Below, piece after piece: positions 5,019 to 27,722 of a stretch of 58,038 nt of DNA. Position numbers and translations under genes: made by a program. Positions within the stretch are counted from its first letter, which is position 1; every line of letters starts with the position of its first letter. The notes beneath the pieces are model-generated. The model did no database searches. It was not told where the DNA came from and was given only the letters and a program-made list of their open reading frames with translations. This DNA comes from an uncultured archaeon (GTDB taxonomy: Archaea; Aenigmatarchaeota; Aenigmatarchaeia; CG10238-14; SCSR01), in assembly GCA_964586885.1 (NCBI GenBank), contig CAZPID010000001.1, forward strand, positions 24,080-82,117, given 5' to 3'.

Positions 5019-5819
5019 CTAAATCCATGCTTTTAGTGTACTTTTCGCCTTAACTATTTTTTCCCGAATTCTTTTCTCCGTATTCGGATTGATCTCATAA
5101 CCAACTAATTTCCTGTTCAAATTAATACAGGCTTGTAAAGTTGTACCACTACCAAGACATGGATCAATTATTAGACCATTAGGATTACTACATTTTTTTA
5201 CGATATCCTCAACGATTTGATAATTGGTTTCTGTTAGATTAGTATTTTTTCCTAAATTATAAGGTCTTCTAATACTCTTAGCATCTTCAACATATTCTCC
5301 TTTGGCATTCCAGATTCTATTATCTAAAGGAGGCTTAACAAAATAAAAAATATGTTGATGTGAAATTGTAAAAGTATTTGGAGAATAGACACCAAAAGTA
5401 TAGTCCCAGATTATTTCGCGTAATCTAATAAAGCCCGCATCATAAGCTGGATATAAAACTTGGTTTAATTTGTCTTGTGTATGTCCTTCTCCTTCAAATT
5501 GATTTTTCTTATTTACTACTAAATCCTTAGCATTGACACATGCACTCCACCAAAAACATGAACCTCCTGGCATTAATTTCTTATAAATTTCTCTCATTCG
5601 AATCTCGCACCATTCCTCGAATTCTTCATCTGGAACTTCTACATATCCTTCAATAGCATCATCCGTTCTGTTGTAATTGCTAGCTTCTCCTTTAAAATTA
5701 ATTCCAAAAGGAGGATCAATTATACATAATTCAACGGTACCATTTTCTAGTTCATCCATATTTTTATTATCGTGGAAGTAGACTTTGTAGTCTTCACCTT
5801 CTAATATCATTAGATCCAT
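5019..5819 (-). CDS. DNA methyltransferase (beta-class, probably N6-adenine or N4-cytosine)
   Basis: Catalytic motif IIDPPFGI precedes the AdoMet motif IIDPCLGSGTT; ends STLKAWI; alternative start at ATG 5810. Confidence 0.8.
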   Translation of the reverse strand: MDLMILEGEDYKVYFHDNKNMDELENGTVELCIIDPPFGINFKGEASNYNRTDDAIEGYVEVPDEEFEEWCEIRMREIYKKLMPGGSCFWWSACVNAKDLVVNKKNQFEGEGHTQDKLNQVLYPAYDAGFIRLREIIWDYTFGVYSPNTFTISHQHIFYFVKPPLDNRIWNAKGEYVEDAKSIRRPYNLGKNTNLTETNYQIVEDIVKKCSNPNGLIIDPCLGSGTTLQACINLNRKLVGYEINPNTEKRIREKIVKAKSTLKAWI

Positions 5820-8800
5820 CTCTCCAGAGAAGGAGTGCCCAAAACGTTAGCCCAGCTAATCCCATAATCTTCTAAGATATTTTCAAGTTTTGCCTTTAGA
5901 CTCACATCAATCATTTTTTCCCATGCTATTTCTAAAGTCTTAAAAGCCGTAGGATCCTCAAAAGCAATTACATCTGAAGTATGTCCATTATATTCTTTAA
6001 CGTAAAGATATTGAACCTGATCTCCTCCTTTAATATCAGTTCCCAGATTTAAATTTGCTAAGATCGCTGCTCTAACATGAGCTGGATAGACCTTATATGC
6101 ATCTAATGGTCTATCCATTCCTTTTTTTAATGCTATATCAACCAAGGGCTGTTCTCTAAAATTTCTGATTATCTTAGTAATTTTTTCCCTAACTTCGTCC
6201 TTGTCTAATTTTCTCCTTACAATCAATTCAAGTAGATATTCCTGCGTTTTTTTAGTATATTCACTTTGATCTCCTCTAATAGCATCATATCCCTTAATTT
6301 CTAAAAAGTCACAGTCTCTACCTTTCCAAACACAGTGGCCTGCGTATCTCTTCTTCTTGCCACTGTAAAGGATCGTCTTATAAAATTTTTCAAACTTTAA
6401 AGAAATAGAAACATCACCTAACTTGTATTCATTTTTAAACCATTCCTTCATTAATTGATCTATCTTTTTTCCTATTTCCGGAGCTTCTTCAAATGGAACA
6501 TCTACTTGCAGACCGTCAGTATTATGAACTAAAATATCATTTGCAAAGAAGCACTCCGTGCCTGGAACAGATAAGTCATAAACATAACCATTGTATTCTA
6601 TAGACTCTATCTTTTTCGGATATCTAATTTTTAAATTATTATAGAAAGTTTTCTTCTTATACGGTTGTAATCTCCTATTTTTTCTATCTTGAATAAAACC
6701 AATTTTCTTCTGAAAAGTCTCCCTGTCTAAAACGACCGCGGCATAGCTGTAGGTATTACTGAATTTACCTTTATAATAATTACCTCCTATATCTTTTTTA
6801 ATCCCGCATACTATTCCGACGGACAATAATAATTCCTTTACCTGTTCAACTAGTTTTAAATTAATAGAACCATAGCCGGTATCTCCACCTACAACAATAT
6901 CTCCGTCTGCTGAAAACATTCCACGCAATAATGCACATTTATTTTCTTCGGTTTCCTCGAATATCCAATTTGGAATCTCCTTAGTTTTACTGGTTCCAAC
7001 AAACCCTAATTCTTTCATTAGGCTTTTAAGCATTTTAGACGAAATACATGAATCTCCTTCCTTACCAATCGAATAACCTCTACACCATTTTTCTAATACT
7101 AGAGGTCTAAGTAATTTAACTCCTAACTCAATTGAATCTATGCCTAAACTTTGATAAATATAATATGGCTTATTATCATAAGATCCGTCGCCAATCCAAT
7201 AACCAAAGAATGACATTAACTTTGGACTATATCCTTTGGTTCTAACTGGATATGAAGGAATGTATCTAGGAGACAGCAAACTATGCACATCTGTAGGTCT
7301 TACCAACTGTATCTCAATCGGAGTTTCTGTACAAGGTCTAGGTTTAGTAGAAAATATAGAATGATCTTCTGTAACGTCAACATAATCCATATTTGTAAGA
7401 CTAATTCTATAGACCTTCTTATTGACCTTATGCCTAATAATTTCTATTGCATTTGAAGTCTTAATTTTGCCATTGGAAGTATCACATGTTAGAAGTGGAA
7501 TTCGACATTGTTTTCTTTCTTTACCAAATTTATCTTTAAAAATTGTAGAAGGAATCAAATTCCATAATTTTTCAATTTCAATTTGTCCTATTTTCGTCCT
7601 GATTTTAGTGTCCTTGGTAACACTATCTCCATAGAGTACTGTAAATCCCAAATTTTCAAATTCCTGCTTCATATGTAGAAGTCCTTCTCTACCATATCTT
7701 GTTACTTCACCTCCAACGGACTTCGTATGGAATCTATTGTATCTGGAACTAAGATATCCATAAATTATTTCTGTTAAAGTTTTAATGGCTTCCTTTTCTT
7801 TTTCTACAATTTCATATTCATCGGTTCCTGGAACTAGATGTTCCAGTTTCTCCTCCACCTTATCTCTTAAAAGGATATATTTTCTACAGACTTTGGGAAA
7901 TAATCTATGATTATCGGGGGATAAATTAAAACTAATTATAATATTTGGATAATATCTAGACATATCAAAAACACTTACATTTTCTGAAAGCCCCTTATGT
8001 TCCTGCTCTAAGACCAAGGCTCCTCTAAAAATTTCTTCGTCTTTAGATGTCATAGATCTTAATATCAATCCCTCCTTTTTAGCATCTCTTATCATATCCG
8101 TATCAATTAGAACTGAACCTGCGAATCCTTTCTCAATATGTTCTATCCCTACCATATCTTTTAACCTCCTAAAATAATCTGAAATCCAATAATACTTTTT
8201 ATCAATTTGTACGGTATACCAAACGTCTTTCATGTTATATTTGACTAATTCTTCCGGAGCATTTTCAAACATTTCTTTTACCTTAGCACCTTTGTATGCT
8301 TCGTCCTTTGTAGTCAATTTTTCCTTTAGTGCGATCCTCTTTAGTTTTGGATATCTTGATATCTTGTGGTATTTGGTATATCCTATCATTAAGTCAAATC
8401 TCTCTAATCCATCAAAATCTAGAGGAAGAGATAACTTCTTAGTCCTGTTTAATAAATAATCAAAGTCATATTCAATGTTCCAACCTACCATCATATCCGG
8501 CATAACCTCATAATAACATTTGATAAAATTCGTAAGAAGTTCATCTTCTGTTCTAAAAACAAAAACGTTATTTTTACTATCTGAGTTCAAAGTAGGATGA
8601 TATACAAAACAGAAATATTCTTCCTTATAGGTATCATAAACTGTAATCGCACAAATTGGTTCTTTGGCATCATCAGCATTTGTAAATTTGGATGCTAAAA
8701 CTTCTATGTCCAGATACCATTTCCTTAGAGGAATATCAACGGTGGTTGGATGAATATCTCTACATCTAACATTTTCTAAATCATCGGTATTTATTTCGAC

Positions 8801-9091
8801 TCCAGAAAGAATTTTTTGGTCAATCATAAATCTTCTGGTATAAGGAATATCTGCTTCAAAATGGATAGCATATTTCGATCTTCTCTTTGGAACATCACCG
8901 GGTTCACTAACAACTATTTTCTTTAATTTTTCGTCATAAACGGACTGGTAAATTCCTTCATCATCTTTTACGAAAAAATAAGGCTTGAAGTCTATGACAT
9001 TGAATTTTATTTTTTTATTATCTATTGTCCTCAAATATCCATAAATTAAACTACCATTCGCGTGTAATGAAGTAAGAATCCCACGAACCAT
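5810..9091 (-). CDS. polB: family-B DNA polymerase, interrupted by an intein
   Basis: Exo motifs YLDIEVL, NIEYDFDYL and YNMKDV; motif A DMSRYYPNII; motif B KTLTEIIYGYL; motif C is split as LYGD-[intein]-TDGL. 1093 aa, or 725 aa after splicing. Confidence 0.93.
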   Translation of the reverse strand: MVRGILTSLHANGSLIYGYLRTIDNKKIKFNVIDFKPYFFVKDDEGIYQSVYDEKLKKIVVSEPGDVPKRRSKYAIHFEADIPYTRRFMIDQKILSGVEINTDDLENVRCRDIHPTTVDIPLRKWYLDIEVLASKFTNADDAKEPICAITVYDTYKEEYFCFVYHPTLNSDSKNNVFVFRTEDELLTNFIKCYYEVMPDMMVGWNIEYDFDYLLNRTKKLSLPLDFDGLERFDLMIGYTKYHKISRYPKLKRIALKEKLTTKDEAYKGAKVKEMFENAPEELVKYNMKDVWYTVQIDKKYYWISDYFRRLKDMVGIEHIEKGFAGSVLIDTDMIRDAKKEGLILRSMTSKDEEIFRGALVLEQEHKGLSENVSVFDMSRYYPNIIISFNLSPDNHRLFPKVCRKYILLRDKVEEKLEHLVPGTDEYEIVEKEKEAIKTLTEIIYGYLSSRYNRFHTKSVGGEVTRYGREGLLHMKQEFENLGFTVLYGDSVTKDTKIRTKIGQIEIEKLWNLIPSTIFKDKFGKERKQCRIPLLTCDTSNGKIKTSNAIEIIRHKVNKKVYRISLTNMDYVDVTEDHSIFSTKPRPCTETPIEIQLVRPTDVHSLLSPRYIPSYPVRTKGYSPKLMSFFGYWIGDGSYDNKPYYIYQSLGIDSIELGVKLLRPLVLEKWCRGYSIGKEGDSCISSKMLKSLMKELGFVGTSKTKEIPNWIFEETEENKCALLRGMFSADGDIVVGGDTGYGSINLKLVEQVKELLLSVGIVCGIKKDIGGNYYKGKFSNTYSYAAVVLDRETFQKKIGFIQDRKNRRLQPYKKKTFYNNLKIRYPKKIESIEYNGYVYDLSVPGTECFFANDILVHNTDGLQVDVPFEEAPEIGKKIDQLMKEWFKNEYKLGDVSISLKFEKFYKTILYSGKKKRYAGHCVWKGRDCDFLEIKGYDAIRGDQSEYTKKTQEYLLELIVRRKLDKDEVREKITKIIRNFREQPLVDIALKKGMDRPLDAYKVYPAHVRAAILANLNLGTDIKGGDQVQYLYVKEYNGHTSDVIAFEDPTAFKTLEIAWEKMIDVSLKAKLENILEDYGISWANVLGTPSLERWI
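6521..7624 (-). mobile_element. PolB intein (368 aa) with LAGLIDADG homing endonuclease
   Basis: In-frame insert inside YGD/TDG. It starts SVTKDTKI, has block B TEDHS and two LAGLIDADG motifs (FFGYWIGDGSY, LLRGMFSADGDI), and ends FANDILVHN followed by a +1 Thr. Confidence 0.85.
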
Positions 9092-9093
9092 TT

Positions 9094-10200
9094 TTACAGC
9101 CAGTCCTGTAAATTAGGAGCTTCTCTATATCCTCCCCATGCATCTTCAAAACCTTTTTCTTTTGCTTTGTCATAAATTTCTACAGCTTCTTCAACCCTTG
9201 GATATTTTTTGATATATTTTTGGAATATATCATCGTTAAGTGCTAACCAATTGGCAAATTTTTCTAATTCAAATAACTTGTACAGATTATGCAGATATCC
9301 ATAAAGATAATGTAAAGTTTCACTAAACTTTGTAAATTGAATTCCTTTAGATTCTGCATCCTTACAAAATGGACATATACATGGAAAAATGGAATAGTCA
9401 ATATTTAGCTTATCTGCACTATCTCCAGCTGGCTGATCAGTGATAAAGGGTGTCAACATTATCTTTCCTCTACCAGCTAACATAGAGAAACTAGAAGTAT
9501 CAGAAGTCAATTTGTTAAAATCTTTACTGAAATATGCTCCAGAAATTAAACCTTTTTGTCCACTCATAGCAAAAATATGCACATTTTTGATTCCTTTTTC
9601 TCTTAGAAAAGATAAGTGTAGTGCTGCAGCAACACTATCATTTGGAGGCCGTGGAGAACATGCAATGCCATCGAATAAATCTAAATGAGGTTCTATAACA
9701 TTTTTCCACCAAAACTTTATCTCTCGATAACTAATTCCATGTAAAACTCCATAGAGTTTAACATCATGTTTTTGTGCTTCTGATTTTATCTCTCTGATAC
9801 TTTTTTCAGTAAATCTTGCACAATCTTGGAAATGGCCATCTGAAATCGTTTCCGCATGTAAGCCTCTTGGAGGAAGATCTAAAATGAAAGCGATATCACA
9901 ATTTTGTGCCTGCCAATTAAAAACTGTAGAAGGATTAAATCTCTCTCCCTGACTCCACTGAGAATAGCCACCTGAATCTCCATACACCATTACGTCTTTC
10001 GGAACTTCATAGACATCTCTCCAGTGATCAAAACCGTATTGATTTTTATTTTGATAACCATAAAAATAGGAAATAAGTAAACTCTTTCTCCTTATAGGAT
10101 GATTTTCTTTCCACCATCTCATATCTACGCTACCTTGGGCCCAAGACTGTTTACTTGCAAACGTAAGTGCACCGGAAATGGCGGGAATATATTCAATCAT
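9094..10200 (-). CDS. dpdA: DpdA-like (TGT-family) DNA-guanine transglycosylase
   Basis: TGT catalytic motif YGDSGGYSQW; zinc site CICPFC...H; SDTSS motif; sits in an operon with preQ0 synthesis genes; ends NLQDWL. Confidence 0.8.
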   Translation of the reverse strand: MIEYIPAISGALTFASKQSWAQGSVDMRWWKENHPIRRKSLLISYFYGYQNKNQYGFDHWRDVYEVPKDVMVYGDSGGYSQWSQGERFNPSTVFNWQAQNCDIAFILDLPPRGLHAETISDGHFQDCARFTEKSIREIKSEAQKHDVKLYGVLHGISYREIKFWWKNVIEPHLDLFDGIACSPRPPNDSVAAALHLSFLREKGIKNVHIFAMSGQKGLISGAYFSKDFNKLTSDTSSFSMLAGRGKIMLTPFITDQPAGDSADKLNIDYSIFPCICPFCKDAESKGIQFTKFSETLHYLYGYLHNLYKLFELEKFANWLALNDDIFQKYIKKYPRVEEAVEIYDKAKEKGFEDAWGGYREAPNLQDWL

Positions 10201-10981
10201 TTCGTTTTTCTCCTAAAAAGTCTTTAATTTTTTTTACTAATCGTTCTTGGTTTTCTAACTCATAGTCCCATATTACTAAAGTATCAAAATTATATTTTTT
10301 ATAGAACTTTACCTTCCTATCTATTTCTTCTTCAGTGTGCCAATAACTCCCACAAAGTTCAATTAATAATCTTTTATCTTTATTTATAAAATCTGGGCAT
10401 TTATCAACGATAATTACTTTGCCATCTCCAACATAATCAAAAGGTAAGCTAAATTTTTTCAATAAGTCTATAAGTCTTCTTTCTAAATTATTAGGTCTAT
10501 TTTTTCTAGACTGTAAGATTTTAGGTAGACTTTTTTGAATACTACTAACCGTATGCATTGCTACTATAGAATTTTTCATTTGATGATCTCTATATTCTTG
10601 ACCTTTCCATAATTCTTTAAGTTTGTTTGATATTCTCGATCTAACCTCTGAAGTAAAAACAACATCATAGTTTCTAGGTTTACCTAATCTCGCCAAACTC
10701 ATTTTTTTCTTAGTCTCAATAGAATGTTTCCTATCTCTCATTGGAGAAGATAGACCCAACATTCTGACTCTGTGATTATCTTTCTGTTCGTCTGTTAATT
10801 TATGTCCTTTCATTCCTGAAACTTTACCTCTATGACTATCTACCTGCATCTGACGATAAATTGGATCTAACCACAAACTTTTTACAGTTTTAGAAAGTTT
10901 TTTGCTAGTTTCTGGATTATTCATAACCTCTTTCATCTTTAATGACATATAATTTCTATATTTCAAACTATTCTTCTTCAT
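10193..10981 (-). CDS. free-standing homing-endonuclease-like protein (NUMOD-like repeats + PD-(D/E)XK/Vsr-like nuclease)
   Basis: C-terminal CPDFINKDKRLLIELCGSYWH...LVIWDYEL. Paralogous to 30883..31641, 43489..44250 and to the QueE intein core. Wedged between dpdA and the SDR gene with overlapping stop/start codons. Confidence 0.65.
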   Translation of the reverse strand: MKKNSLKYRNYMSLKMKEVMNNPETSKKLSKTVKSLWLDPIYRQMQVDSHRGKVSGMKGHKLTDEQKDNHRVRMLGLSSPMRDRKHSIETKKKMSLARLGKPRNYDVVFTSEVRSRISNKLKELWKGQEYRDHQMKNSIVAMHTVSSIQKSLPKILQSRKNRPNNLERRLIDLLKKFSLPFDYVGDGKVIIVDKCPDFINKDKRLLIELCGSYWHTEEEIDRKVKFYKKYNFDTLVIWDYELENQERLVKKIKDFLGEKRND

Positions 10982-11673
10982 AGACTTTTGCCACCATCGA
11001 TAATTATGTTTGTACCTGTCATGTAATCAAATTCACTCTTAGTTAAATTAAAAATTACTTTTGCTATTTCATAAGCACTAGCTTCTCTCTTTTGTGGTAT
11101 CATATCTAAAACATCTTGTGGAAGAGGTGCGTTTCCACACAAATTAGTTTTTACCAAACCGGGAGAAATACAATTAACTCTAAACTGAGGATATTTTTTT
11201 GCTAAACATTTTGTAAAATGGATTAATGCAGCTTTTGTTACAGCATAATTAATAATGAAATCCTCATTTTCTATCCCAGAAGTGCTTCCTACATTAATAA
11301 TTCTTGCTCCTTTATTTAAAAATGGAATGAGATTACGAGTTAATTCCATTGGAGCAACTAAATTGACATTTAACAGATTCCACATCATAGCTGTGCTATA
11401 GTCTTTAAAATCTACCAAGTTAAGCATTCCAGCATTATTCACTAGAAGATCATACTTTCCATTAGCATAAATTGGAAGTTTTTCTATTTTTTGGACATTT
11501 TCAAAATTAAAGGGTATTCCTTTAACCCTTTTGAAGAGAGGATCTTCTAAAAATACTTTGTCAGTATCTCTAGAAATCGGTACTACATTCCAATGATGTT
11601 TTACTAAGATCCTAGTTATTTCATAACCTATTCCATGAGTTGCTCCTGTTACGATCGCTCTTTTCTTTAACAT
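10978..11673 (-). CDS. short-chain dehydrogenase/reductase (SDR)
   Basis: AIVTGATHGIGYE (TGxxxGxG), NNAG, catalytic YAVTKAAL (YxxxK). Confidence 0.85.
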   Translation of the reverse strand: MLKKRAIVTGATHGIGYEITRILVKHHWNVVPISRDTDKVFLEDPLFKRVKGIPFNFENVQKIEKLPIYANGKYDLLVNNAGMLNLVDFKDYSTAMMWNLLNVNLVAPMELTRNLIPFLNKGARIINVGSTSGIENEDFIINYAVTKAALIHFTKCLAKKYPQFRVNCISPGLVKTNLCGNAPLPQDVLDMIPQKREASAYEIAKVIFNLTKSEFDYMTGTNIIIDGGKSL

Positions 11674-11969
11674 TATTTAACCTCCAATCTCGCATCAGTA
11701 TCAGGAGACTCGTCCTCCTTTGGATGAAAATCTTTATCTGCTTGAGGTTTAATTTCAGTTACGATTGTAGGAATCCGTTTTGCTGAATTTTCAAGATCAT
11801 ATTTTTTTATTAAGATTATAAAAGTAGGATGTAAAAGCCTTTTATTTCCTGGATCAGCTTTCAACCATGTATAACAAAATGAACGAACAAACGAACCTTC
11901 TGAATCATTATTGGAAGTAGTATATGCTAAAGTATCAAGTTCTTCTAAGGTAGGATTAAGCTGGAACAT
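11673..11969 (-). CDS. hypothetical protein
   Basis: 98-aa track ORF coupled to both neighbours within the modification operon. Confidence 0.5.
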   Translation of the reverse strand: MFQLNPTLEELDTLAYTTSNNDSEGSFVRSFCYTWLKADPGNKRLLHPTFIILIKKYDLENSAKRIPTIVTEIKPQADKDFHPKEDESPDTDARLEVK

Positions 11970-13062
11970 GAGTAGGATCCCTATATTCTGAATAATGACT
12001 TTGGAATTTTGCGTCTAAAATATTGTCTAAGCCATTCTTCTGCGCATAATGTTCTGCAAACCAAGCATAACTCCAAAAGCATCCTGGACATAATTGTTTA
12101 CCACCATAAATTTTATCTAGGATTTCCTTTCGACCGTCTTTCCAACCTAAGCGGAAGACTGAAATTCTCTCTTTCATATAGTTAGAATAAGAACAACTTC
12201 TTAAAGTTCCATCTGCTTCGATATCAATTATTAATCCTGAATTGCAGTGCCACAACATTTCTGGTGCTAGATCCACACCATGTTCAAAATATTCAATCGG
12301 ATTTTGTACCATTACTTCACCACTTTTTACCATATCGGCTATCTCATGCATTACGTTTTTTAAACTAACATGATCCTGCTCTCTAAACAGGAAACTAGGC
12401 ATAAGATCATCAGAAAAGAAATCATATTTTTCATCTTTTTTATGTTCAACGAAATTAAGTCCAGCCCAAATTTCTTTAGATGTCATATATCTCAGAAGTT
12501 CAGGAATCTTTTTATAATTTTGTCTATGAATTGTAATGGTCCCTTGGACATCTGGAACGCCATGATTCTTAAACCATTGTAATTGTTCTAGCCCCCAAAT
12601 ACTTTTCGTATCAATATCCTTATCTCCTGTTGTTCCCCCCATAATATCGATCCCGCAACTAATATTGTATAAGCCGGCTTCTACCATAGGTAATCTTAAT
12701 TTCTGATATTGTGGTTCAACAAAAGTAGAATACATTGCATACCTTCCAAAATATCCAAAATCTTTTAACGCTCTTATTAGTTCTATTATCCAAGGATAGA
12801 GCAATACTTCATTTCCTAAAATTAAGAAAAATTTTACTCCCATATCACTTAGAATATTAAAAGCTCGAATCCACTCCTGTGGTTTTAAAAGGCCTTCCTC
12901 AGGGACCACGTCTTTACTGCCACAATAACTACATTTGCGAGGACAATATCTTTGAATAAACAAGCATGCATATCTTGGATTATCTGCTCTCTTTATTTCA
13001 AATCTCTTGACATTTTCTCCAAGAACATTGATATCATTTTTATAAATACTACCCGATTGCAT
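11956..13062 (-). CDS. radical SAM enzyme with SPASM/twitch-like C-terminal domain
   Basis: CPRKCSYC (CX3CX2C), GGE-like ILGNEVLL, C-terminal HCNSGLIIDIEADGTLRSC and CPGC. Confidence 0.8.
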   Translation of the reverse strand: MQSGSIYKNDINVLGENVKRFEIKRADNPRYACLFIQRYCPRKCSYCGSKDVVPEEGLLKPQEWIRAFNILSDMGVKFFLILGNEVLLYPWIIELIRALKDFGYFGRYAMYSTFVEPQYQKLRLPMVEAGLYNISCGIDIMGGTTGDKDIDTKSIWGLEQLQWFKNHGVPDVQGTITIHRQNYKKIPELLRYMTSKEIWAGLNFVEHKKDEKYDFFSDDLMPSFLFREQDHVSLKNVMHEIADMVKSGEVMVQNPIEYFEHGVDLAPEMLWHCNSGLIIDIEADGTLRSCSYSNYMKERISVFRLGWKDGRKEILDKIYGGKQLCPGCFWSYAWFAEHYAQKNGLDNILDAKFQSHYSEYRDPTHVPA

Positions 13063-13900
13063 TCCTCATCAATTCCTCATAACTCCGATACCATAATTTA
13101 TTTCTAAGCTTACCTTTAAGTTCTTGTAAAGCTTCTGGAATAAATCTCTGTCTAAAATAAAGTGAATCGCCATATTTCTGTCCATCTTCAATTCCGTATT
13201 TTTCCTTTGCAATTAAATGCGCTAATCTTCTATTGCAACAGCAGCCACATTTTCCTTCAGTAGCCATTAAAGTTCTAAAATCGACTGGATTATCTTCAAT
13301 ATCAATCGGAGCTAAATCACAGGACCAAGTATAATTATAAATCCAACCAAATCCATTATCATGTCCCCATTTTAAGATTTGTGGTTTGTCCATCTCATTT
13401 TCTGGTGATATAACTTTCGGAATAAATTTGTTGCAACCGTATTCTAACATGTGACTAAATCTGTCTAAGAACTCCTTAGTATTGTCTTTGTAGCTCCACT
13501 CACTAGCATTGGTTCCTAATGTGATATATTCTGCTTCAATATGTTCTGCATAAGATGCTGCTAATGCTAAAAATACCACATTTCTAGCTGGAGTCCAAAT
13601 TTCATCAATCGTTGTTGCAGACTTCCTCAAGCTGTCCATTCCTTCTGGAACAGGAATATTCTCATTAGTTAAACATGAATCTTCTCCAAATACTGGAGTC
13701 TTTACAATTTCTAATTTAATTGGATAACCTTCTTCTTGTAATTTGCTAGCAATAAATCTACAGCTTGCTTTTTCTCCTCTCTCAGATCTTTGACCAATAG
13801 AAAAATGCATTAGATATACTTCATATCCTTTCTTAAGCATCATCAACGAATTGGTTATAGAATCCATTCCACCAGATGTTACACATACAGCTTTTTTCAT
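13049..13900 (-). CDS. queC: QueC-family PP-loop ATPase (7-cyano-7-deazaguanine synthase-like), paralogue 1
   Basis: VTSGGMDS PP-loop, TPARNVVFLALAA, C-terminal Cys cluster WSCD...GKCGCCCNRR; 283 aa. Confidence 0.75.
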   Translation of the reverse strand: MKKAVCVTSGGMDSITNSLMMLKKGYEVYLMHFSIGQRSERGEKASCRFIASKLQEEGYPIKLEIVKTPVFGEDSCLTNENIPVPEGMDSLRKSATTIDEIWTPARNVVFLALAASYAEHIEAEYITLGTNASEWSYKDNTKEFLDRFSHMLEYGCNKFIPKVISPENEMDKPQILKWGHDNGFGWIYNYTWSCDLAPIDIEDNPVDFRTLMATEGKCGCCCNRRLAHLIAKEKYGIEDGQKYGDSLYFRQRFIPEALQELKGKLRNKLWYRSYEELMRNAIG

Positions 13901-14052
13901 TTTTCTGATTCCTCCTGTACATAACTTGACATGATTTCATCAAATTCTTTGTCAGTTATTTTACATAATTTTTCATAGAATGCCTGAGCTGATTCTTTAC
14001 ATTCTGGATATCTTAAAACTATTGATCTAACTAAATAACTAACTCTCACCAT
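13897..14052 (-). CDS. small ORF (51 aa, below the track cutoff)
   Basis: ATG at 14052..14050 overlaps the queC-2 stop, and the TGA overlaps the queC-1 ATG (ATGA); MVRVSYLVRSIVLRYPECKESAQAFYEKLCKITDKEFDEIMSSYVQEESEK. Confidence 0.4.
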   Translation of the reverse strand: MVRVSYLVRSIVLRYPECKESAQAFYEKLCKITDKEFDEIMSSYVQEESEK

Positions 14053-14804
14053 ATAGCCACTCCATGTTTCTTTAATACTGCTTTCATCATATCTTCTCTG
14101 GCTCCTACATATTTTCCATCGTTGAGACCTCTTATGTATTGTGTTTTCATCAATCTACTTTTTAATGGATTCCTGACAAAAGAAATAGGACCATCTCCAT
14201 CTAGATTACTGGCTTCTAAAGCAAACCACATCCTTATACATGCTGCACATCTTCCACATGGATCTTTAGTACCACTAAAGCAAGAATAAGTACGTTTTAA
14301 TAATTCTATCCCGTTCTCGTGGTTAGACAAAACATAATCTACAATTCGTTCCTTAGTAATATTGGCAAAAGGAGAAATTATCGTAATATTTTTTTTATCA
14401 GCTTCACTTAAAGTCATTTGTAAAAGTCTATTAAATTTACTAGTCCTATCTCCAATATTTGATTCTCCTAACTGAACATTCTGCAAATAGATATTTCCTC
14501 CATCAGACAAATAATAACATGCTATACCTGCTAAAAATAAGTTTCTATAAGGAATGTGCGAATCCTTTTTTTCATATTCTCCTAAATCGACTCCTTTATG
14601 TATCTGAAAATCTACATCTAACTGTGATATTAATTTATGAACTGCCAATATCTCACGACTTTGATAACGACTACCTAGAGCAACATAAAGTGCTAAAACT
14701 TCTTCTTTTTTAAATTTCTTCAAAGCTATCAATAATGCTGCTAGGCTGTCAACTCCTCCTGATATCAGAACTATTGCTTTTTTAGACAAGACGTATTTCC
14801 CCAC
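14046..14804 (-). CDS. QueC-family PP-loop ATPase, paralogue 2
   Basis: LISGGVDS PP-loop, IPYRNLFLAGIA, YSCFSG...PCGRCAACIRM zinc motif, plus a roughly 50-aa C-terminal extension. Confidence 0.75.
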   Translation of the reverse strand: MGKYVLSKKAIVLISGGVDSLAALLIALKKFKKEEVLALYVALGSRYQSREILAVHKLISQLDVDFQIHKGVDLGEYEKKDSHIPYRNLFLAGIACYYLSDGGNIYLQNVQLGESNIGDRTSKFNRLLQMTLSEADKKNITIISPFANITKERIVDYVLSNHENGIELLKRTYSCFSGTKDPCGRCAACIRMWFALEASNLDGDGPISFVRNPLKSRLMKTQYIRGLNDGKYVGAREDMMKAVLKKHGVAIW

Positions 14805-15396
14805 TTCTGATCATTTGATAAGCTCTCATTTCTAATTCTCTGTCATCCCTGAACCTTTCTGAAGCTGAACTAATTTTAACTATTGTTTGTGGATCTTCTA
14901 TTCCTCTGAAGAACATACATGTATGCAGACCAACAGTATATATCAAACATGCATGAGGCCTTACATGCTTCATAAAAAGGTTTCTGGCTTTCGCTGCATA
15001 ATCTTCCTGCAACTGTGGAAATTTTCCTAGTTCTACCAAGAACCTAGGTATCTTTGAAAGCCCTACTACTTTCTTCTCCCCTTGCTGATCTGGAATAAAT
15101 ATTAACCATACCTTTATAATCGCAGGAAGAAAATGGTGTGGGCACAACATCTTAACGGTCACAGGACCTACACATTCCATAGCGTCTGATATTGTTGGAA
15201 ACATTGTTCCCAAGTGTTTAACGGCATCTTTTTCATTATATGGATTAGTAAACTCTTTAAGCCAATTAGATATCCTGCCTGGAGAATCTTTAAAGTTTGG
15301 ATCATTTAAATCAATATTTAAAGACTTTAATAATTCCAATGATTTGTCATGGATCTTATCTCCATCTCCATATTCTATGTTCTCTTTTATTTCCAT
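14782..15396 (-). CDS. folE: GTP cyclohydrolase I
   Basis: MLCPHHFLP, VVGLSKIPRFLVELGKFPQLQED, HTCMFFRG. Confidence 0.8.
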   Translation of the reverse strand: MEIKENIEYGDGDKIHDKSLELLKSLNIDLNDPNFKDSPGRISNWLKEFTNPYNEKDAVKHLGTMFPTISDAMECVGPVTVKMLCPHHFLPAIIKVWLIFIPDQQGEKKVVGLSKIPRFLVELGKFPQLQEDYAAKARNLFMKHVRPHACLIYTVGLHTCMFFRGIEDPQTIVKISSASERFRDDRELEMRAYQMIRSGEIRLV

Positions 15397-17160
15397 CTAT
15401 GTTCCTCTTTCATTGCCATAAAGCATGATCTGTAACCTTGGACTATATCTGATTCCATATTTTTTACATTCTTCAACTAGCCAAATACTATTTCTAGTAA
15501 TCGTCTTAGCATCTATACCCAAAGGCATGAAATAGGTCTTACTTGTCGGTATTTGAAATGGTTGGAGAAAGTCGTCAAAAACTTCCTTGATATCTTCTTT
15601 ACGACCAATAACAAACTTAAATTTAGTTCTGCTGTTCCTATTAAACCATTTTAGAGCAGGTGCAATAATCCTTTTATCTCTTGGCATTTTAGAATTAGAA
15701 AGTTTTGGACTTACGTCATAATATATTGGAAATGGCTCCTGTTCAAAAATTATCGTACCATTAGTTTCAATTTCATAACTTCTTATCCAAGGAAATTCCT
15801 CCTTAACTTGTATGAGCAGTTCTGCCAAACCTTCTTGAACTAAAGGTTCTCCTCCAGTAAAAATCACATGTGCATTTGCAAAGGCCTGAATCCTTTTCAT
15901 AATATCTTCAGAGTTCATTGGTACAAATTCAGTAGGTAAATTTCTCATCTTAATTAACTCTGGTACTGCATATGGAGTATCACAATTATGAGCTAAAATA
16001 CCATTTGCATAATAGTTATGATTTGAAGTCCTAAAATTGTAAACTGTAAGTTGGTAGCATTCTGGATAGTGTTTAAAACCTTCATTATGTCTACAATTCT
16101 TGATTCTTCTAGCTCCCATTCTGACTAATTGTTTAGGATTTGAAACTTTAGAAATAGATGTTACCCTTGTTCCATTGGTAATAAATCTATTAACTCTATC
16201 AATCATATTATTTCTACCATTATTATTTTTTTGGTATATTCTTCCGTTAACATCAAGCATTAAACACTCCCATCCAAAATTTTTGAAAAATATTTTTCTT
16301 TCCTCCGACCATCTTTCATCTCTATCCATATAAGTAGGATCATAAAGTTCAATAATTTTTTTCTGTCCTATGACTTTAAAGTCTGGATTTCTAAATTTTT
16401 TTATTTTGTTACCTATCCATAATTTAGCATTTCCTACATATTCTATCGGTAAATTATTCATTTCGAATTCATTAATTGCAATTTTTTCTAATCCGCTTGG
16501 TCTATGTTTATGAGACTTCATATTTTTTACCACTATTTCAGGATCGAACATTGGATTATGAATTTTTTTACAATTACTCTGATTTTTTCTCCATTCTTCT
16601 GTACGCAAATATGGTTTAATTTTTCCACTACCATATCCTTTCCTAACAGAATCTGCTACCTTTTTAACTATATTTTTATCTTTCATTGGATTATAATTTT
16701 TCATCTTCCAAGAAAGATAAGTTTCTCTAGGTAATCTATCTATTAATTCATCTATCTGTAATTCTTTTGCTCTTACATATTGTCCTCGATCTATAGAATA
16801 AATTGGATGCTCTTTAGTTACAAACAATGAAATGCCATGATCAAATGTTATCTTAATTATTTCAAGACCAGATACTTCTCTTCTGAAAATATCTTGTACG
16901 ACCTGTAATTCTAATTCACCTTTACTACCTTTGCCTAAAATTCTCTCTCCAATTTTAATATCTTTAGCCTTTTTAGTTCCGTTTTCACTATAGATTCTAG
17001 TATTTGGTATTAAACAATACCCACAAAATAAGTTACACCCATAGAACCTGATAAAAGTTGTTGGTTCACCAACAAAATAACCTTCTCCTTGTATTGAAGA
17101 AAATATCTCTGAGATTGCATATTTTAGATCTTTCCTTAAATTTATTTTTTGCGTCTCCAT
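15397..17160 (-). CDS. queE: 7-carboxy-7-deazaguanine synthase (radical SAM), interrupted by an intein
   Basis: [33 protein letters not shown]-[intein]-CDTPYA; 587 aa, or 243 aa after splicing. Confidence 0.85.
15985..17016 (-). mobile_element. QueE intein (344 aa) with PD-(D/E)XK/Vsr-like endonuclease core
   Basis: Starts CLIPNTRIY, block B VTKEHPIY, ends [11 protein letters not shown] with a +1 Cys. The core ([35 protein letters not shown]) resembles the free-standing HEG at 10193..10981. Confidence 0.8.
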
Positions 17161-19005: not shown

Positions 19006-19734
19006 TTACATCCCCTTTATTGGTGCTATTATGTAAGTTATTTCTAAGTCTTCACCTAAGTAAGAAATGGAAACTGGCTCCTGGGTCAAAACTAGCCATA
19101 CTGGACCTGCCAATAATTCTACCACCCTTTGAAGTTTTTCTACATCTAAAATTACCTCTCCTTCAGCGGATTGTGACTTTTGTGTATATTCTAACTTCCT
19201 GACATAAGAAGAAACTGCACTTTTTGCTTCTGCTTTAATCTCGCTATCTGAGTAATTCAGTCTGATTCTATCCGTTCCAATATTGTCTAATTGCGTTATC
19301 TCTAGTTTGTATGCAACTGCTATATCAGCTTTCTCGGTGATATATCCATATTGTGTCCTCTTCACTGTATCAAAAGGTAATGACGTTTCAACTTTCTCTA
19401 AACCTTTCTCCTCATAGACCTCGTTTTTACCAGTCAATGTCACTTTGCCATCCTTAAAGATTAATTCTATTGTCTTATCTCCTTTGAAAGATTTAGAAAG
19501 TCTATTCAACATGTCATTCGCTCTTAATTTAACTTCTCCAATCGGATCATAAGATTCAAAATAATCTTTCTTAAACATTCCAAAGGCTAACATCGTAATT
19601 CCAGCGTCTCTATTTGCTACATAAACACCGTCATCTTTAAAATCTAAAAGCAGTTCTTCAATTTTAGACTTTCCTCCTTTTGAAATACTTGCCAATTCTA
19701 ATAACCGTTGTAACTTAGTTGGTTCTATTCTCAT
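19006..19734 (-). CDS. PCNA-like sliding clamp
   Basis: 242 aa. PCNA-like pattern DGVYVANRDAGITMLAFGMFKKDYFESY and C-terminal VSISYLGEDLEITYIIAPIK (cf. the canonical ...yLAPr ending). Next to the primase, and RFC is encoded in the same window. Confidence 0.7.
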   Translation of the reverse strand: MRIEPTKLQRLLELASISKGGKSKIEELLLDFKDDGVYVANRDAGITMLAFGMFKKDYFESYDPIGEVKLRANDMLNRLSKSFKGDKTIELIFKDGKVTLTGKNEVYEEKGLEKVETSLPFDTVKRTQYGYITEKADIAVAYKLEITQLDNIGTDRIRLNYSDSEIKAEAKSAVSSYVRKLEYTQKSQSAEGEVILDVEKLQRVVELLAGPVWLVLTQEPVSISYLGEDLEITYIIAPIKGM

Positions 19735-21789: not shown

Positions 21790-22127
21790 TTCAATACCTT
21801 CATATCCGGAAAACTCCAGATTCTATATTGCTTTGAAGTGGTATCATAGATTATCAATTGAACCTCGTCAAAATATTTCAATGCTAACTGTAAAGTACAC
21901 GAAGTAACTAACGGATTTCCAATAGAAACAATACGAGCTACCGATTCATTGACAATCTGTTTAGCATGATTTAAGGCCCTATCAATATCGAGTGTCCATA
22001 AAGAACTTTTCAAATCTACAAATTCTTTATCTAATAAAACAATAAAATTTATTTCACCATTATAGATTTTGTTTAAAGGTCCTCTAACATTGTGGTGTGT
22101 TAGGAGTGGAAGCATTACATGTACCAT
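21786..22127 (-). CDS. hypothetical protein
   Basis: 113-aa track ORF, coupled to neighbours. Confidence 0.5.
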   Translation of the reverse strand: MVHVMLPLLTHHNVRGPLNKIYNGEINFIVLLDKEFVDLKSSLWTLDIDRALNHAKQIVNESVARIVSIGNPLVTSCTLQLALKYFDEVQLIIYDTTSKQYRIWSFPDMKVLN

Positions 22128-23914
22128 TATCTCACCTTTAAATATTGAACTACTTGCCTTCTAAAATGAGAAGTCATTATATGGGCTGCTTGTTCCATAT
22201 CTGTAGCAGTAGTAAATCCTGAACCAAAAATCGTTTCCATATATCCGTCCGACGCACCGCCAGTATAAATGCTTAAAAGTGTGATTCCTGATTTCTTACA
22301 ATCTCTTACAGCTTTCCTAGCCAAAGAGGTTAACCAATCTCGGTTAACTTCTCTATATTGTGTAGACATTTGTGGAGAACCATCAGTCACAACTATTAAC
22401 AATTTTTTGGCCGCCTTTTTATTGTTTAAAATATGTTGAGCGTATTGAATGGCCAGATGGGTTGGCGTATATGGATAACCACGTACTCCAGTCAATCGTC
22501 CTATATCTTCTAGCCTATTAATATCGACTACGGCAAGCGCATAAAATCTCTCTGGAGCTGAAAAACCTATTACAGATAACTCTATATTGTCTATCTTCTT
22601 GAGACTATAGAATAAGGTTGCCGAAATATTCCTTGCAATATCTAATGGTACTCCAGACATAGAACCACTACAATCTACCAAAATGGTAACAGCTAGACCA
22701 TTATCAATTTTCTCATCTTCAAAAATATTTCCCTGCTTCCTCACCTTGAACTGAATATACTCGTCTAAATCAATTTGAGTTCCATCTTCATCAATATCTT
22801 CAGCATATTTTCCTTTTATAGTTCTAAAAAGCCTATTTAATTGATGTGCTAATCCATAATCTACCTGAACATCTGATACTGGTCTGTCTATCCACATAAC
22901 TCTTCCTTCTACAGTAGGAATTACATTAGGATCAATATGTTTCTGAGACTGGACTTCATCCAATCTTCTCTTTAGTTTTTCTAAAACTTCTTCTTCCTCC
23001 TTTTGTGATTCCTCTAAAGCCTTCTCAAATTCTTCGTCATTTTCGGTAACATCTATATCTAATTCCAATGGTTCCGCTTCCTTAAAATCATCATGATCTC
23101 CATCAAATTGATCTGCATTTGCTAAAGATTGATCTAATCTTACTTGGTTTTTAGTATAGTTCGAATCTCGATCTTCTTCGTTTCCCTTTCCAGAATCTTT
23201 ATCTCGTCCTTGTTCGCCAGTTTTACCATCTTTTTGCTCACCTGTTTCTGAACCAGATAAATTTAACATTTCTGTTTCTGGAGGAATAACCTGCGATAAA
23301 AACCAAGGTTTAACTAAGGATTCAAAATATTTTTTAGTTAAAAGTACTCCCGCACTTCTTCCTTTAAACTCAACCTTCTTAATGTATTCAATCGCTTCTG
23401 GCCATTTACTATCCTTTACTAGATCACCTCTATCAAATCTAGCAGCAAAAATGGCATCTATTGGATTATCAATATTATTCACATTAGACTTACCAACGAG
23501 TTTCCTAAATTCTACTCTTCTTTTAGCAAATCCTGGATGTAATTTACCATAATTTGAATCAACCCGTGTATCTTCAATAATATTGTAAATGGACTTTATA
23601 ATTCGTTTTCCTCGCTCTCGATATTTTTCTGGGAGATCCTTTGCCAAGGCCTTACAGACTTCTGCTATAAATTTAACTGGAGTATCATCTATATAATGGC
23701 TAATTTCATGTTCAAAAGTTGAATAAGGCTTACAGAATTTAGAATTTTCATCGATAGTAATTTCGTAGCACGGATTAGGTCCTCGCTTAAAAAAAATATG
23801 GGAACCTCCGCCGGAACTAAATCTTAAATAGATTTTTTCTTTTCCGCGGAGGTTTTCAAAAATACTTTTGGTCTTGTAAAAGACATCCTTTTGGGCTAAA
23901 ACTAGTCGTGGCAT
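22127..23914 (-). CDS. vWA-domain protein (CobT-like) with N-terminal HExxH motif
   Basis: MIDAS motif LVDCSGSMSG, LLIVVTDGSP; N-terminal FEHEISHYID; acidic linker. Confidence 0.75.
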   Translation of the reverse strand: MPRLVLAQKDVFYKTKSIFENLRGKEKIYLRFSSGGGSHIFFKRGPNPCYEITIDENSKFCKPYSTFEHEISHYIDDTPVKFIAEVCKALAKDLPEKYRERGKRIIKSIYNIIEDTRVDSNYGKLHPGFAKRRVEFRKLVGKSNVNNIDNPIDAIFAARFDRGDLVKDSKWPEAIEYIKKVEFKGRSAGVLLTKKYFESLVKPWFLSQVIPPETEMLNLSGSETGEQKDGKTGEQGRDKDSGKGNEEDRDSNYTKNQVRLDQSLANADQFDGDHDDFKEAEPLELDIDVTENDEEFEKALEESQKEEEEVLEKLKRRLDEVQSQKHIDPNVIPTVEGRVMWIDRPVSDVQVDYGLAHQLNRLFRTIKGKYAEDIDEDGTQIDLDEYIQFKVRKQGNIFEDEKIDNGLAVTILVDCSGSMSGVPLDIARNISATLFYSLKKIDNIELSVIGFSAPERFYALAVVDINRLEDIGRLTGVRGYPYTPTHLAIQYAQHILNNKKAAKKLLIVVTDGSPQMSTQYREVNRDWLTSLARKAVRDCKKSGITLLSIYTGGASDGYMETIFGSGFTTATDMEQAAHIMTSHFRRQVVQYLKVR

Positions 23915-25024
23915 TTAGACCTTACTCCCAAGGTCTACTGCAAATGTACTGGAGATTCTAGCTTTAACTGCTTCCACATGCTTATCTACCTCATACAGAC
24001 CCAAGACTGCAACCGTAAGAGCTTTTTCAAGGGCTTCCGGTTCCGTCATTCCTGAAGTTTGGAATTCTTTATAAATCCGCAAGAACTTAACTTCATCTCT
24101 TGGACTCAGTGCATATTCCAATGTATTGTCTGCAACTGCAGCTCTTAACTCTTTAGACAACATCAATAGATGGTCTACGTTTTCTTTTGGAACATCTGCT
24201 GTTGCTATAATTTTCTTTTCTTGTACTGTATTTGGATAATCCCATCTCCAAACGGTAAATCTACTAAGTAGATCCTCATTTAATTCATGTACTCCTCCAT
24301 AGTATGAAGGATTCTGAGTTGCACAAATTAGAAGTTTTGCACCTTCTGCTAATTTGTAGATCTTTCCAATTTCTGGAATATGTATATGACGTCTCCAATC
24401 AAGTAATTGATTTAGGATCTTCTGTATTTGAGGAGTTAACGCATTCAGTTCCTCTAGTACAAGTATCGCCGTTCCACATTGATTTGCTACTTCAATTGCT
24501 CTTGGTAAGAATCCCAAATCAAAAACAACTTGTTCTCCTTGTAGTCTAAAACGACCTATCAAATCCGTTCTCTTAGTATTTTCCGAACAGTCCGTCTGTA
24601 GGATTGGAATTTTTTTCTTTTTTGCGTAACTTGCTATGGCTAAGGTTTTTCCAATTCCTTTTGGTCCTGAAACCAAAATTGGAATTTCCGCATTTAGATG
24701 TGACTCAAATACAATCTCTTCTGCGTTAAAAGGAAAATATTCTGGACAATCATCCAACATATATTCCCGATAGTCAATAGGAGTAATAGGAACTCCATTC
24801 ACTATTTCTAAAGGTTCCAATCTTTTCTCAGTAGGAATTACACTTGTCTGAGTAGATTCAAGTCCACCATTTGTAAAAAAGTCAACAAGTATTTTTTTCC
24901 TAAATTCTTGTCCGTCCTTTGTAAAAGGTTTGCCACCTTTACCTTTCTCCAAGTATACTTGGATTTGTTCTCGTACCTGTTTTGATAGATTTTTATTCTG
25001 CGATTTTTGGTTTTGTGAATTCAT
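23915..25024 (-). CDS. MoxR/CobS-like AAA+ ATPase
   Basis: Walker A ILVSGPKGIGKT, Walker B AILVLEELNAL; paired with the downstream vWA protein. Confidence 0.8.
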   Translation of the reverse strand: MNSQNQKSQNKNLSKQVREQIQVYLEKGKGGKPFTKDGQEFRKKILVDFFTNGGLESTQTSVIPTEKRLEPLEIVNGVPITPIDYREYMLDDCPEYFPFNAEEIVFESHLNAEIPILVSGPKGIGKTLAIASYAKKKKIPILQTDCSENTKRTDLIGRFRLQGEQVVFDLGFLPRAIEVANQCGTAILVLEELNALTPQIQKILNQLLDWRRHIHIPEIGKIYKLAEGAKLLICATQNPSYYGGVHELNEDLLSRFTVWRWDYPNTVQEKKIIATADVPKENVDHLLMLSKELRAAVADNTLEYALSPRDEVKFLRIYKEFQTSGMTEPEALEKALTVAVLGLYEVDKHVEAVKARISSTFAVDLGSKV

Positions 25025-27354: not shown

Positions 27355-27722
27355 AGAATGTTTGGTATTCAGTATAGTATTATATCTATACTTTTACTAA
27401 TAGATCTACGATACCCATAGAATAGCAACGATACCCACTATGTTATATATAGTAGTCGTTGATATCGTAGATCTAGAACCTGTAGTTTTACGACAAATGT
27501 CGACCTATCGTAGAGAACGTAGAGGAATACCAGCTTGGGATCTACGATAGTATACTACCTTCAACATTCTCTATTTGCTTCTATTTTTGCATTCTATAAG
27601 GTTGACAACTAGATAGTAACTACTAAAGAAGGAAATACAAATACCAGAACATTTCAAACAAAATACTAAATAACTTACATAGAATAAGCTATTCGTAGAT
27701 GAGGTGGAGCAAAAAGTCTACG
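27343..27722. repeat. iteron array (8 copies of CGTAGA/TCTACG core; candidate origin or protein-binding array)
   Basis: ATCGTAGA at 27348, 27464 and 27507; CGTAGA at 27518 and 27694; TCTACGAT at 27405 and 27541; TCTACG at 27717. 16-bp direct repeat GACCTATCGTAGAGAA at 27343 and 27502. 13-bp inverted repeat TAGATCTACGATA (27401..27413) / TATCGTAGATCTA (27463..27475). ACGATACCCA occurs twice (27408, 27428). Confidence 0.7.

Follow-up and report, generated by a model that had tools for sequence, protein, structure and literature searches.

The window analysed here, a 58,038-nucleotide stretch from the assembly of an uncultured archaeon (GCA_964586885.1, contig CAZPID010000001.1, positions 24,080 to 82,117 of the forward strand), carries viral genes, three of which lie next to each other on the minus strand and encode proteins with closely similar C-terminal tails. 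One is a DpdA-like enzyme of the tRNA-guanine transglycosylase (TGT) fold (9094..10200), which its structure model, its Foldseek matches and its gene context mark as a putative DNA 7-deazaguanine transglycosylase. It is followed by a family-B DNA polymerase (PolB, 5810..9091; Pfam DNA_pol_B, exonuclease and intein domains, the intein being of the LAGLIDADG type) and by an N6/N4 DNA methyltransferase (open reading frame, ORF, 5019..5819), which passes the Pfam gathering threshold for PF01555 (N6_N4_Mtase) with 90.6 bits against a cut-off of 26.7 (E 1.8e-25, residues 29-248 of 266) and probably starts at the ATG at 5810, overlapping the PolB stop codon as TAATG. The DpdA-like protein ends in APNLQDWL (N-L-Q-D-W-L, 9097..9114), PolB in GTPSLERWI (S-L-E-R-W-I, 5813..5830) and the methyltransferase in KSTLKAWI (T-L-K-A-W-I, 5022..5039). 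The same format recurs on the plus strand in a 69-aa ORF (47805..48014) situated between the genes for an RFC-like protein and a PD-(D/E)XK nuclease, which ends in YNLREWI (N-L-R-E-W-I, 47994..48011). An earlier note had proposed that these tails are docking peptides for PCNA that couple DNA modification to the replication fork, and had listed with them a look-alike with F for W on an Mrp/NUBPL-like P-loop ATPase (31809..32894, plus strand; Pfam ParA/NUBPL over residues 1-192), which ends in NLLERFI (L-L-E-R-F-I, 32874..32891). On translation all five C-termini are found exactly where that note placed them.

Are four such endings more than a coincidence? We considered a set of 93 greedily chosen, non-overlapping ORFs from the window (18,286 residues, tryptophan frequency fW = 0.0125). 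Four of the 93, namely PolB, the methyltransferase, the DpdA-like protein and the 69-aa ORF, end in exactly L-x-x-W-[IL], where 0.017 would be expected (Poisson P = 3.8e-9), and more than two such endings were seen in none of 20,000 composition-preserving resamplings. The suspicion that the shared endings are unlikely to arise by chance is therefore well founded. Since the same five-residue pattern has only six further, internal copies, making 10 in all against 3.3 expected anywhere, the excess is specific to C-termini.

The tails also sit where a docking peptide might be looked for. Clients of archaeal PCNA usually bear a PCNA-interacting peptide (PIP) at their extreme C-terminus, with hydrophobic residues that fill a pocket of the clamp (PMC3504372, PMC4929162). 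LERWI, LKAWI, LQDWL and LREWI all conform to the hydrophobic core of such peptides, [LIM]-x-x-[FWY]-[FWYLI], and the tails lie outside folded domains: the Pfam domains of the methyltransferase and of PolB stop 18-19 residues short of the C-terminus, and an AlphaFold2 model of the DpdA-like protein, built from a 99-sequence alignment (predicted local distance difference test, pLDDT, 93.6), falls from pLDDT values above 90 up to about residue 350 to 85 at residues 351-360 and about 54 for the last eight residues. In this model a low-confidence tail with a single helical turn follows a confident globular TGT domain, which is the behaviour that would be expected of a short linear motif. A close described counterpart is the PIP of archaeal PolB. 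The Pyrococcus furiosus PolB chain in the PolB-PCNA complex 3A2F ends in ...QVGLTSWLNIKKS and carries QVGLTSWL, with the same L-x-x-W-L/I core in a short stretch beyond the thumb domain, and Sulfolobus solfataricus PolB1 can be aligned right up to TPSLER of the window PolB. Unlike its P. furiosus counterpart, which continues for five more residues, the window PolB lacks the conserved glutamine and ends at the last residue of the motif.

Conservation of the tails in relatives and across the family

Absence of the motif from orthologues had been named beforehand as an outcome that refutes the docking proposal, and we ran this comparison here. Six relatives of the DpdA-like protein could be detected, at 26-76% identity, and every one has a tail of the form [LM]xxW[IL] or ..RWW; among these tails are NLQEWL at 76% identity, NLYKRWW at 33%, DLKRWI at 29%, DMKEWL at 28% and NLGEWI at 26%, the last from a single short contig recovered in a metagenome scan. 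The residues just ahead of the motif vary in both length and sequence, which implies that the motif is under selection of its own. For the DpdA-like protein the motif is thus kept in all six of these relatives. For the methyltransferase the picture is mixed, with KSTLKAWI kept at 91% and KSTLKEWLK at 59% identity and no motif at 44%. Other collections yielded little: no relatives were found among IMG/VR viral contigs with the DpdA-like protein, its five-sequence alignment or the PCNA alignment, a scan of a genome collection for the DpdA-like family returned nothing, and the GenBank phage collection held no near match to the window and just remote TGT-like matches in isolated jumbo phages, in GR7B (L030, 1102..2718), Illi-2 (L031, 1357..2727) and Motura (L032, 1318..2739).

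More can be learned from whole contigs. Unless stated otherwise, the comparisons that follow cover the window and eight related contigs, which we label L001 and so on. Contigs with DpdA-like relatives are syntenic with the window, having in the same succession MoxR-VWA, AAA_24, PCNA-like, primase, QueE/PTPS/FolE/QueC, DpdA, PolB, XPF and MCM genes, and the order FolE-QueC-(PTPS, QueE)-DpdA-PolB is found in L001, L003 and L009 as well. When ORFs are clustered into groups, the motif stands at the C-terminus of 10/10 full-length proteins in the DpdA group and 7/7 in the PolB group, and of none in every other shared group (QueC, FolE, RFC, XPF, primase, Vut_1, AAA_24 and others). Outside the shared families it recurs on DNA-modification enzymes that are particular to one lineage and on a handful of small ORFs.

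The form of the motif differs between lineages. In L001 three adjacent genes encode PolB (NLTRWL), DpdA (DLKRWI) and a 172-aa ORF (DLRKWL); L003 combines an intein-containing PolB ending in KLEDWF with a DpdA ending in DMKEWL. In L002 the tails are SRSWW on PolB and KRWW on DpdA, and in the related L007 the polymerase (SRVWW) and DpdA (KRWW) are joined by a Dam-type methyltransferase (PF02086) with RRWW and a 402-aa glycosyltransferase-like protein with VGWW. In L008 the DpdA tail is LYKWW and a 229-aa ORF of the same modification cluster ends in NTWW. L009 has QGTIFDF on DpdA and NLGSFL on a PolB-like protein, and L006, at 24% GC, encodes two DpdA paralogues (QKGLFDF and QKGLFEF) besides a PolB-group protein and a 164-aa ORF that both end in GLDKWF. 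Within one lineage, PolB and the modification enzymes have thus made the shift from L-x-x-W-[IL] to R-x-W-W together. Because the motif changes flavour in parallel across unrelated enzymes of one lineage, a single shared docking partner is suggested, and we regard this parallel change, together with the independent acquisition of such a tail, in the flavour of the lineage, by two unrelated families of methyltransferase, as the strongest argument for one partner that the sequences offer. Two further features of these contigs may be mentioned. Some genomes carry tandem DpdA-like paralogues (L006, 10001..12323; L005, 215..2102), and the PIG-L-like proteins of L007 (5528..6334) and L008 (7376..8191) both end in YGDPLW, a conserved tryptophan-terminal tail of a different format.

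To what extent do these tails characterise the DpdA-like family at large? Searched with a profile, 1.8 billion cluster representatives yielded 1,467 family matches; tails were examined in 153 members, comprising the best 150 of the 1,467, which were listed as 50%-identity cluster representatives, and three close relatives from the first search (148/153 of those examined are 50%-identity cluster representatives). Tryptophan occupies position -2 in 45/153 members, a 15-fold enrichment, F or W dominate position -1, L at -5 is enriched 2.9-fold and Q at -7/-8 4-4.7-fold. An aromatic residue lies within the last three positions of 121/153 proteins, compared to 51 in internal-truncation controls, and the union of PIP- or clamp-type patterns captures 85/153, compared to 7.4 in controls. 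There are two main tail classes, a mostly Q-less [DNSG]-L-x-x-W-[LFI] ending and a Q-x-x-[LI]-F-x-F ending. In the former, L is found at -5 in 26/34, W at -2 in 26/34 and L, F or I at -1 in 29/34 tails, and Q at -8 in 2/34; 9/13 tails of the latter class have the Q. Since the members of the query profile lack Q, its enrichment was not imported from the profile, and the joint enrichment of Q, L and W means that the family regenerates the PIP consensus Q-x-x-h-x-x-a-a at the extreme C-terminus. The contigs of the motif-less member P0029 and of P0077, a member with a QVGLSSWL-type tail, are too short to show a polymerase or a clamp. We also considered that the Q-x-x-L-F tails might address a bacterial beta clamp; L006, the only long contig with such tails, encodes PCNA-like and RFC-like proteins, its PCNA-like gene adjoining the RFC-like one, and PCNA is the simpler reading.

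Identity of the putative transglycosylase, the PCNA-like clamp and their genomic setting

As neither the DpdA nor the PCNA label had Pfam support, the two were tested separately. The DpdA-like protein has no Pfam match even at E <= 1, including the TGT family PF01702 and DUF6610 (DpdA4). The NCBIfam TgtA model reaches it with E 0.0065, its 15 bits falling short of a cut-off of 350 so that this curated model is not passed, and relatives get as far as E 2e-5 against curated models, below the gathering score. A five-sequence profile, on the other hand, finds an archaeosine tRNA-guanine transglycosylase (ArcTGT) of the PDB with E 6e-4, in a match that covers the CxCxxC...H zinc site. The structure model retrieves ArcTGT 1J2B (E 1.9e-8, TMq 0.64), bacterial TGTs and the DNA preQ0 insertase DpdA 7UI4 (E 1.4e-7) in Foldseek searches, as well as phage TGT-like proteins in BFVD, including one from Cellulophaga phage phiST; identity to the structural neighbours is 11-17%. 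Across the 99 aligned sequences C274, C276 and C279 of the zinc site are at least 90% conserved and H304, D75 (in DSGG), D108 and D234 are invariant; catalytic roles are presumed for these residues. The gene adjoins genes of the preQ0 pathway, encoding FolE, two copies of QueC and a radical SAM protein that is QueE-like by position, and the association with preQ0 genes is repeated in L001, L003, L009, L027 and L028. The protein thus resembles described DpdA enzymes (bDpdA and DpdA1-4; PMC6884629, PMC10516641; 7UI4) in its TGT fold, its CxCxxC...H zinc site and its FolE/QueC/QueE-type neighbours in a viral genome, and differs from them in passing no Pfam model and in its low identity to structural neighbours. 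It is accordingly a TGT-fold enzyme, DpdA-like by context, that by sequence thresholds falls outside any curated DpdA subfamily. For such divergent TGT-fold proteins the presence of a clamp-type tail itself argues, indirectly, that DNA rather than tRNA is the substrate.

The virus-encoded PCNA that the earlier note had placed at 19006..19734 (minus strand) shows homology to PCNA over both clamp domains (about 245 aa) despite having no Pfam match at E <= 0.01 (neither PCNA_N nor PCNA_C thresholds are passed). An NCBIfam sliding-clamp subfamily comes up with E 0.0016 and 18 bits against a cut-off of 284. A four-sequence profile retrieves almost exclusively PCNAs from the PDB (24/25 listed matches, the odd one being a plant metal-binding protein at E 0.14), and its best match, S. 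solfataricus PCNA3, is aligned end to end (24-237 against 21-242, E 6.9e-7). PCNA-like genes are present in the window, L001, L002, L006 and L008, and RFC-like genes in the window, L002, L006 and L007.

The DpdA-like, PolB and methyltransferase genes are part of a long gapless minus-strand array that runs from about 25.0 kb down to 4.3 kb, and that continues beyond the methyltransferase with an XPF/ERCC4 gene (ORF start 4993, Pfam threshold passed). The 7-deazaguanine precursor set (10978..17160, minus strand) is directly upstream of the DpdA-like gene. By Pfam match it comprises an SDR-family reductase (10978..11673), a 368-aa radical SAM protein (11956..13062), QueC (13049..13900), a QueC-like PP-loop protein (14046..14804), GTP cyclohydrolase I (FolE, 14782..15396) and an intein-containing radical SAM protein (15397..17160), labelled QueE-like from its position in the cluster; a 98-aa ORF without family match (11673..11969) and a 51-aa ORF (13897..14052) are interspersed. 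An archaeo-eukaryotic primase and then the PCNA-like ORF follow beyond the precursor genes. At the head of the array lie a MoxR-type AAA+ ATPase and a VWA-domain protein (22127..25024), a CobS/CobT-like pair that is kept in L001. A plus-strand array extends from 29.4 kb onward and encodes an RFC-like clamp-loader subunit (46199..47155; Pfam AAA, Rep_fac_C, DNA_pol3_delta2 and Rad17), a second AAA+ protein (49142..49939), an MCM-like protein and the PD-(D/E)XK nuclease. The 69-aa ORF accordingly has replication genes as neighbours. It was described as a zinc ribbon in the earlier note; the tail stands, the label is weak, for the putative protein has three cysteines and one histidine, and neither family-model searches nor PHROGs gave a significant family match and no orthologue was found. 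PHROGs likewise assigned no function to the 172-aa ORF of L001 or to the presumed structural genes.

Several other features of the window deserve mention. It is AT-rich (33-37% GC), and searches for tRNAs and for notable tandem repeats found none. The cumulative GC skew reaches its minimum at about 26.7-29.4 kb, where gene orientation switches from minus to plus, and ORFs of at least 50 aa are absent from 27355..28059; this region is a candidate replication origin or divergent promoter. The minus-strand array holds two inteins, the LAGLIDADG intein of PolB and a Hint/intein insertion in the QueE-like radical SAM protein, and the PolB of L003 (1..3459) is also intein-bearing. Three ORFs have DUF559/Vsr-like endonuclease domains (10193..10981, 30883..31641 and 43489..44250), one of them with a NUMOD3 motif, and the first is squeezed in where the DpdA-like gene and the SDR gene meet. 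All three probably encode nucleases of a homing or restriction-like kind, which might have to do with telling modified from unmodified DNA. The SDR and the extra radical SAM enzyme (10978..13062) separate QueC from the DpdA-like gene; a homologue of this radical SAM enzyme accompanies a methyltransferase and a QueF-like gene in L002, and L007 and L008 have PIG-L-like, SPASM radical SAM and glycosyltransferase genes. These additional enzymes in the clusters of the window, L002, L007 and L008 suggest 7-deazaguanine derivatives that have yet to be described. Finally, the viral genome contains metabolic genes of archaeal-lipid type, two for UbiA prenyltransferases and one for a geranylgeranyl reductase (GGR) (44234..45184, 51110..52264, 53165..54166). 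The nearest cellular relatives of GGR are only about 25% identical and come mostly from Poseidoniales metagenome-assembled genomes, so that a Poseidoniales-type host is a weak guess.

Candidate partners for the tails and what docking would mean

Having established that the tails are unusual in the window and conserved beyond it, we can ask what they are for. We are strongly inclined to regard them as a shared functional docking motif. As to the partner, we infer that the tails of the form [S/T/N]-L-x-x-W-[I/L]-COOH are Gln-less peptides of the PIP-box type and that their common partner is PCNA, either the viral clamp (19006..19734), the host clamp, or both; that PCNA is the partner and fork-proximal modification the consequence we put at a probability of roughly 0.65. 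Under this reading the viral and/or host clamp would be loaded by the viral RFC-like proteins, and clamps remaining on the new duplex would recruit the DpdA-like transglycosylase, which would swap G for a 7-deazaguanine supplied through the adjacent FolE/QueC/QueE-type genes. The same clamps would recruit the N6/N4 methyltransferase. Viral DNA would then be modified at or just behind the fork instead of later by free diffusion, with a shorter unprotected period for nascent DNA and one-dimensional access to DNA for the base-exchange enzyme.

A number of observations weigh against PCNA docking as just outlined. The canonical glutamine of the PIP (Q-x-x-h) is absent from the four window tails, which have K, T, A and K at position -8; Q-less PIPs are known, Dpo4 being an example (PMC3504372). 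Classical PCNA clients of the window, namely the RFC-like proteins, XPF and the PD-(D/E)XK nuclease, have no terminal motif. Conversely, look-alike tails are present on proteins without a DNA role, the Mrp-like ATPase and GGR (which ends in QWFLKTLF), and the methyltransferase relative at 44% identity that lacks the motif is found beside a terminase gene, in a different context. About 44% of the family members examined fit none of the patterns, and the TGT-like relatives from jumbo phages end in long Lys/Arg-rich tails (e.g. ...KAKDTKKVTTNAKAKSTKK) rather than clamp motifs; these Lys-rich tails may be an alternative DNA-tethering appendage. The clamp itself is of little help here, a single-sequence AlphaFold2 model of the PCNA-like protein (just two database homologues) having a pLDDT of 32 and an unreadable client pocket. 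Lastly, 7-deazaguanine insertion has been described as post-replicative, with no mention of clamp or replication coupling (PMC10516641). The look-alikes enumerated in the earlier note, on the Mrp-like protein, XPF and GGR, for their part gained no support from orthologues: XPF, which ends in ...KNIYDFVREYVTKS, has a near-terminal KNIYDFV that is not kept in L002 or L007, and the Mrp-like protein, which had no relatives in the scan of IMG/VR viral contigs, sits in a context without DNA-related genes, so that its tail is probably not part of the system.

Some of these points would be accommodated if the motif were real and shared and the hub were not PCNA but another component of the replisome or virus factory, for instance the RFC-like loader, the primase, the MCM-like helicase, a Sak4/AAA_24-like ATPase or a scaffold specific to the virus. 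The signs of a common partner do not by themselves identify it, the missing PIP glutamine and an R-x-W-W flavour that is no textbook PIP leave room for another, and so does the absence of the motif from the window's RFC-like proteins, XPF and nuclease. We nonetheless think a different hub unlikely. No lineage has a PolB without the motif, and the corresponding PolB tail of cellular archaea is the part that binds PCNA (3A2F; PMC3504372); moreover, the family-wide consensus regenerates Q-x-x-L-x-x-W-h and PCNA-like genes are present. Alternatively, PIP-type tails might act against the host clamp, by competition or blockage, so that host PCNA is tied up or host enzymes are kept off, instead of serving processive modification. 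Small PCNA inhibitors are indeed known in Thermococcales, where TIP is an example (PMC4929162), and the motif is borne by small ORFs of 69 aa (window), 172 aa (L001) and 164 aa (L006), which could be clamp competitors rather than enzymes. At best, however, this covers the small ORFs and leaves the family-wide tail on catalytic modification enzymes unexplained, which makes it an improbable account of the tails as a whole.

The remaining two explanations dispense with docking. If the tails reflected chance, or a general taste for hydrophobic or aromatic C-termini with just the PolB tail a true PIP, look-alikes on the Mrp-like ATPase and GGR and a motif-less methyltransferase relative would come as no surprise. 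For DpdA and PolB this is statistically refuted: the Poisson probability in the window is about 4e-9, the motif is kept at 26-33% identity while the tail residues beside it vary, its counts in the DpdA and PolB groups are 10/10 and 7/7 with 0 in all other shared groups, and the flavour switches by lineage across unrelated enzymes. We accordingly rate chance as very improbable overall. A constraint at the nucleotide level has still less to recommend it. In compact arrays the 3' end of one gene overlaps the ribosome-binding site or start of the next, which might favour G-rich TGG codons, and DpdA, PolB and the methyltransferase are translationally coupled: TAATG combines the PolB stop with the methyltransferase start, 2 nt separate the DpdA stop from the PolB ATG, and the PolB tail contains strings resembling GGAG. 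Yet codons in the motif vary between genes (Leu as TTA, CTG, CTA or TTG, the last residue as CTG, ATC, ATT or ATA), a spacer of about 25 nt with its own AGAGG-type ribosome-binding string separates the methyltransferase motif from the XPF ORF (start 4993), and other tightly coupled genes of the array do without the motif. Nor would a Shine-Dalgarno sequence explain Leu at -5, Q at -7/-8 or F-for-W variants such as QKGLFDF and QGTIFDF. We reject a Shine-Dalgarno or gene-overlap origin on this codon evidence; amino-acid conservation with synonymous variation largely refutes it, and we would be most surprised to see it revived.

Docking on PCNA, which we continue to prefer, would follow a principle already known from archaeal PolB, Fen1, RFC, NucS and NreA; what appears to be new is the client class, consisting of viral TGT-fold base-exchange enzymes and other DNA-modification enzymes. 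The eukaryotic methyltransferase DNMT1 is recruited to newly replicated DNA by a PIP-type peptide on PCNA, which couples maintenance methylation to the fork. The window methyltransferase is like DNMT1 in being a DNA methyltransferase with a PIP-type clamp peptide, and unlike it in enzyme type and motif position: DNMT1 is a C5 cytosine methyltransferase with a PIP in its N-terminal region, whereas the enzymes discussed here are evolutionarily unrelated, of the PF01555 N6/N4 type or, in L007, of the Dam type, and have the motif at the extreme C-terminus. The archaeal uracil-DNA glycosylase (UDG) is a base-excision glycosylase bound to PCNA. Like UDG, and like the non-core archaeal PIP clients NucS and NreA (PMC4929162), which are base-flipping or repair enzymes tethered to PCNA by a terminal PIP, the DpdA-like enzyme would work from the clamp; while those proteins remove or repair bases, it would swap a normal base for a modified one and serve anti-restriction. 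Among viruses, gp43, gp33 and gp55 of phage T4 have C-terminal tails that bind the clamp gp45. MuC of phage Mu is a further case of sliding clamp use beyond replication (bioRxiv 10.1101/2025.01.04.631326). As in T4 and Mu, several functionally different viral proteins would share one short clamp-binding peptide, except that there the clamp is gp45 or beta and the clients are a polymerase and late-transcription factors, whereas here modification enzymes and PCNA are concerned. The author of the earlier note knew of no clamp-tethered DpdA, and our full-text literature search likewise turned up no paper in which DpdA is connected to PCNA or a clamp.

Viral 7-deazaguanine modification, described to date as the post-replicative work of free DpdA enzymes (PMC10516641), ranges in extent from <0.1% to 100% of G, a spread for which no explanation has been given. 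If the transglycosylase docks on the clamp through its tail, there is a concrete mechanism by which modification of nascent DNA could be fast and extensive, and this mechanism draws support from the presence of the same tail on other modification enzymes in the same genomes, namely two unrelated methyltransferase families and a glycosyltransferase-like protein. If true, it would close the period during which new viral DNA is exposed to restriction and would add new clients to the PCNA tool belt, as a viral counterpart of DNMT1-PCNA coupling. More tentatively, and with slightly worse than even odds in our view, clamp tethering might be general in the large viral TGT-fold family and among other hypermodification enzymes, so that modification in PCNA-encoding viruses is co-replicative and the lineage dialects (L-x-x-W-[IL], R-x-W-W and Q-x-x-L-F-x-F) constitute a private clamp-client code that has co-evolved with the divergent viral PCNA. 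Such a code, if real, would set the viral replisome apart from that of its host, and the parallel switch in flavour would provide a natural system in which to follow the evolution of clamp-client specificity.

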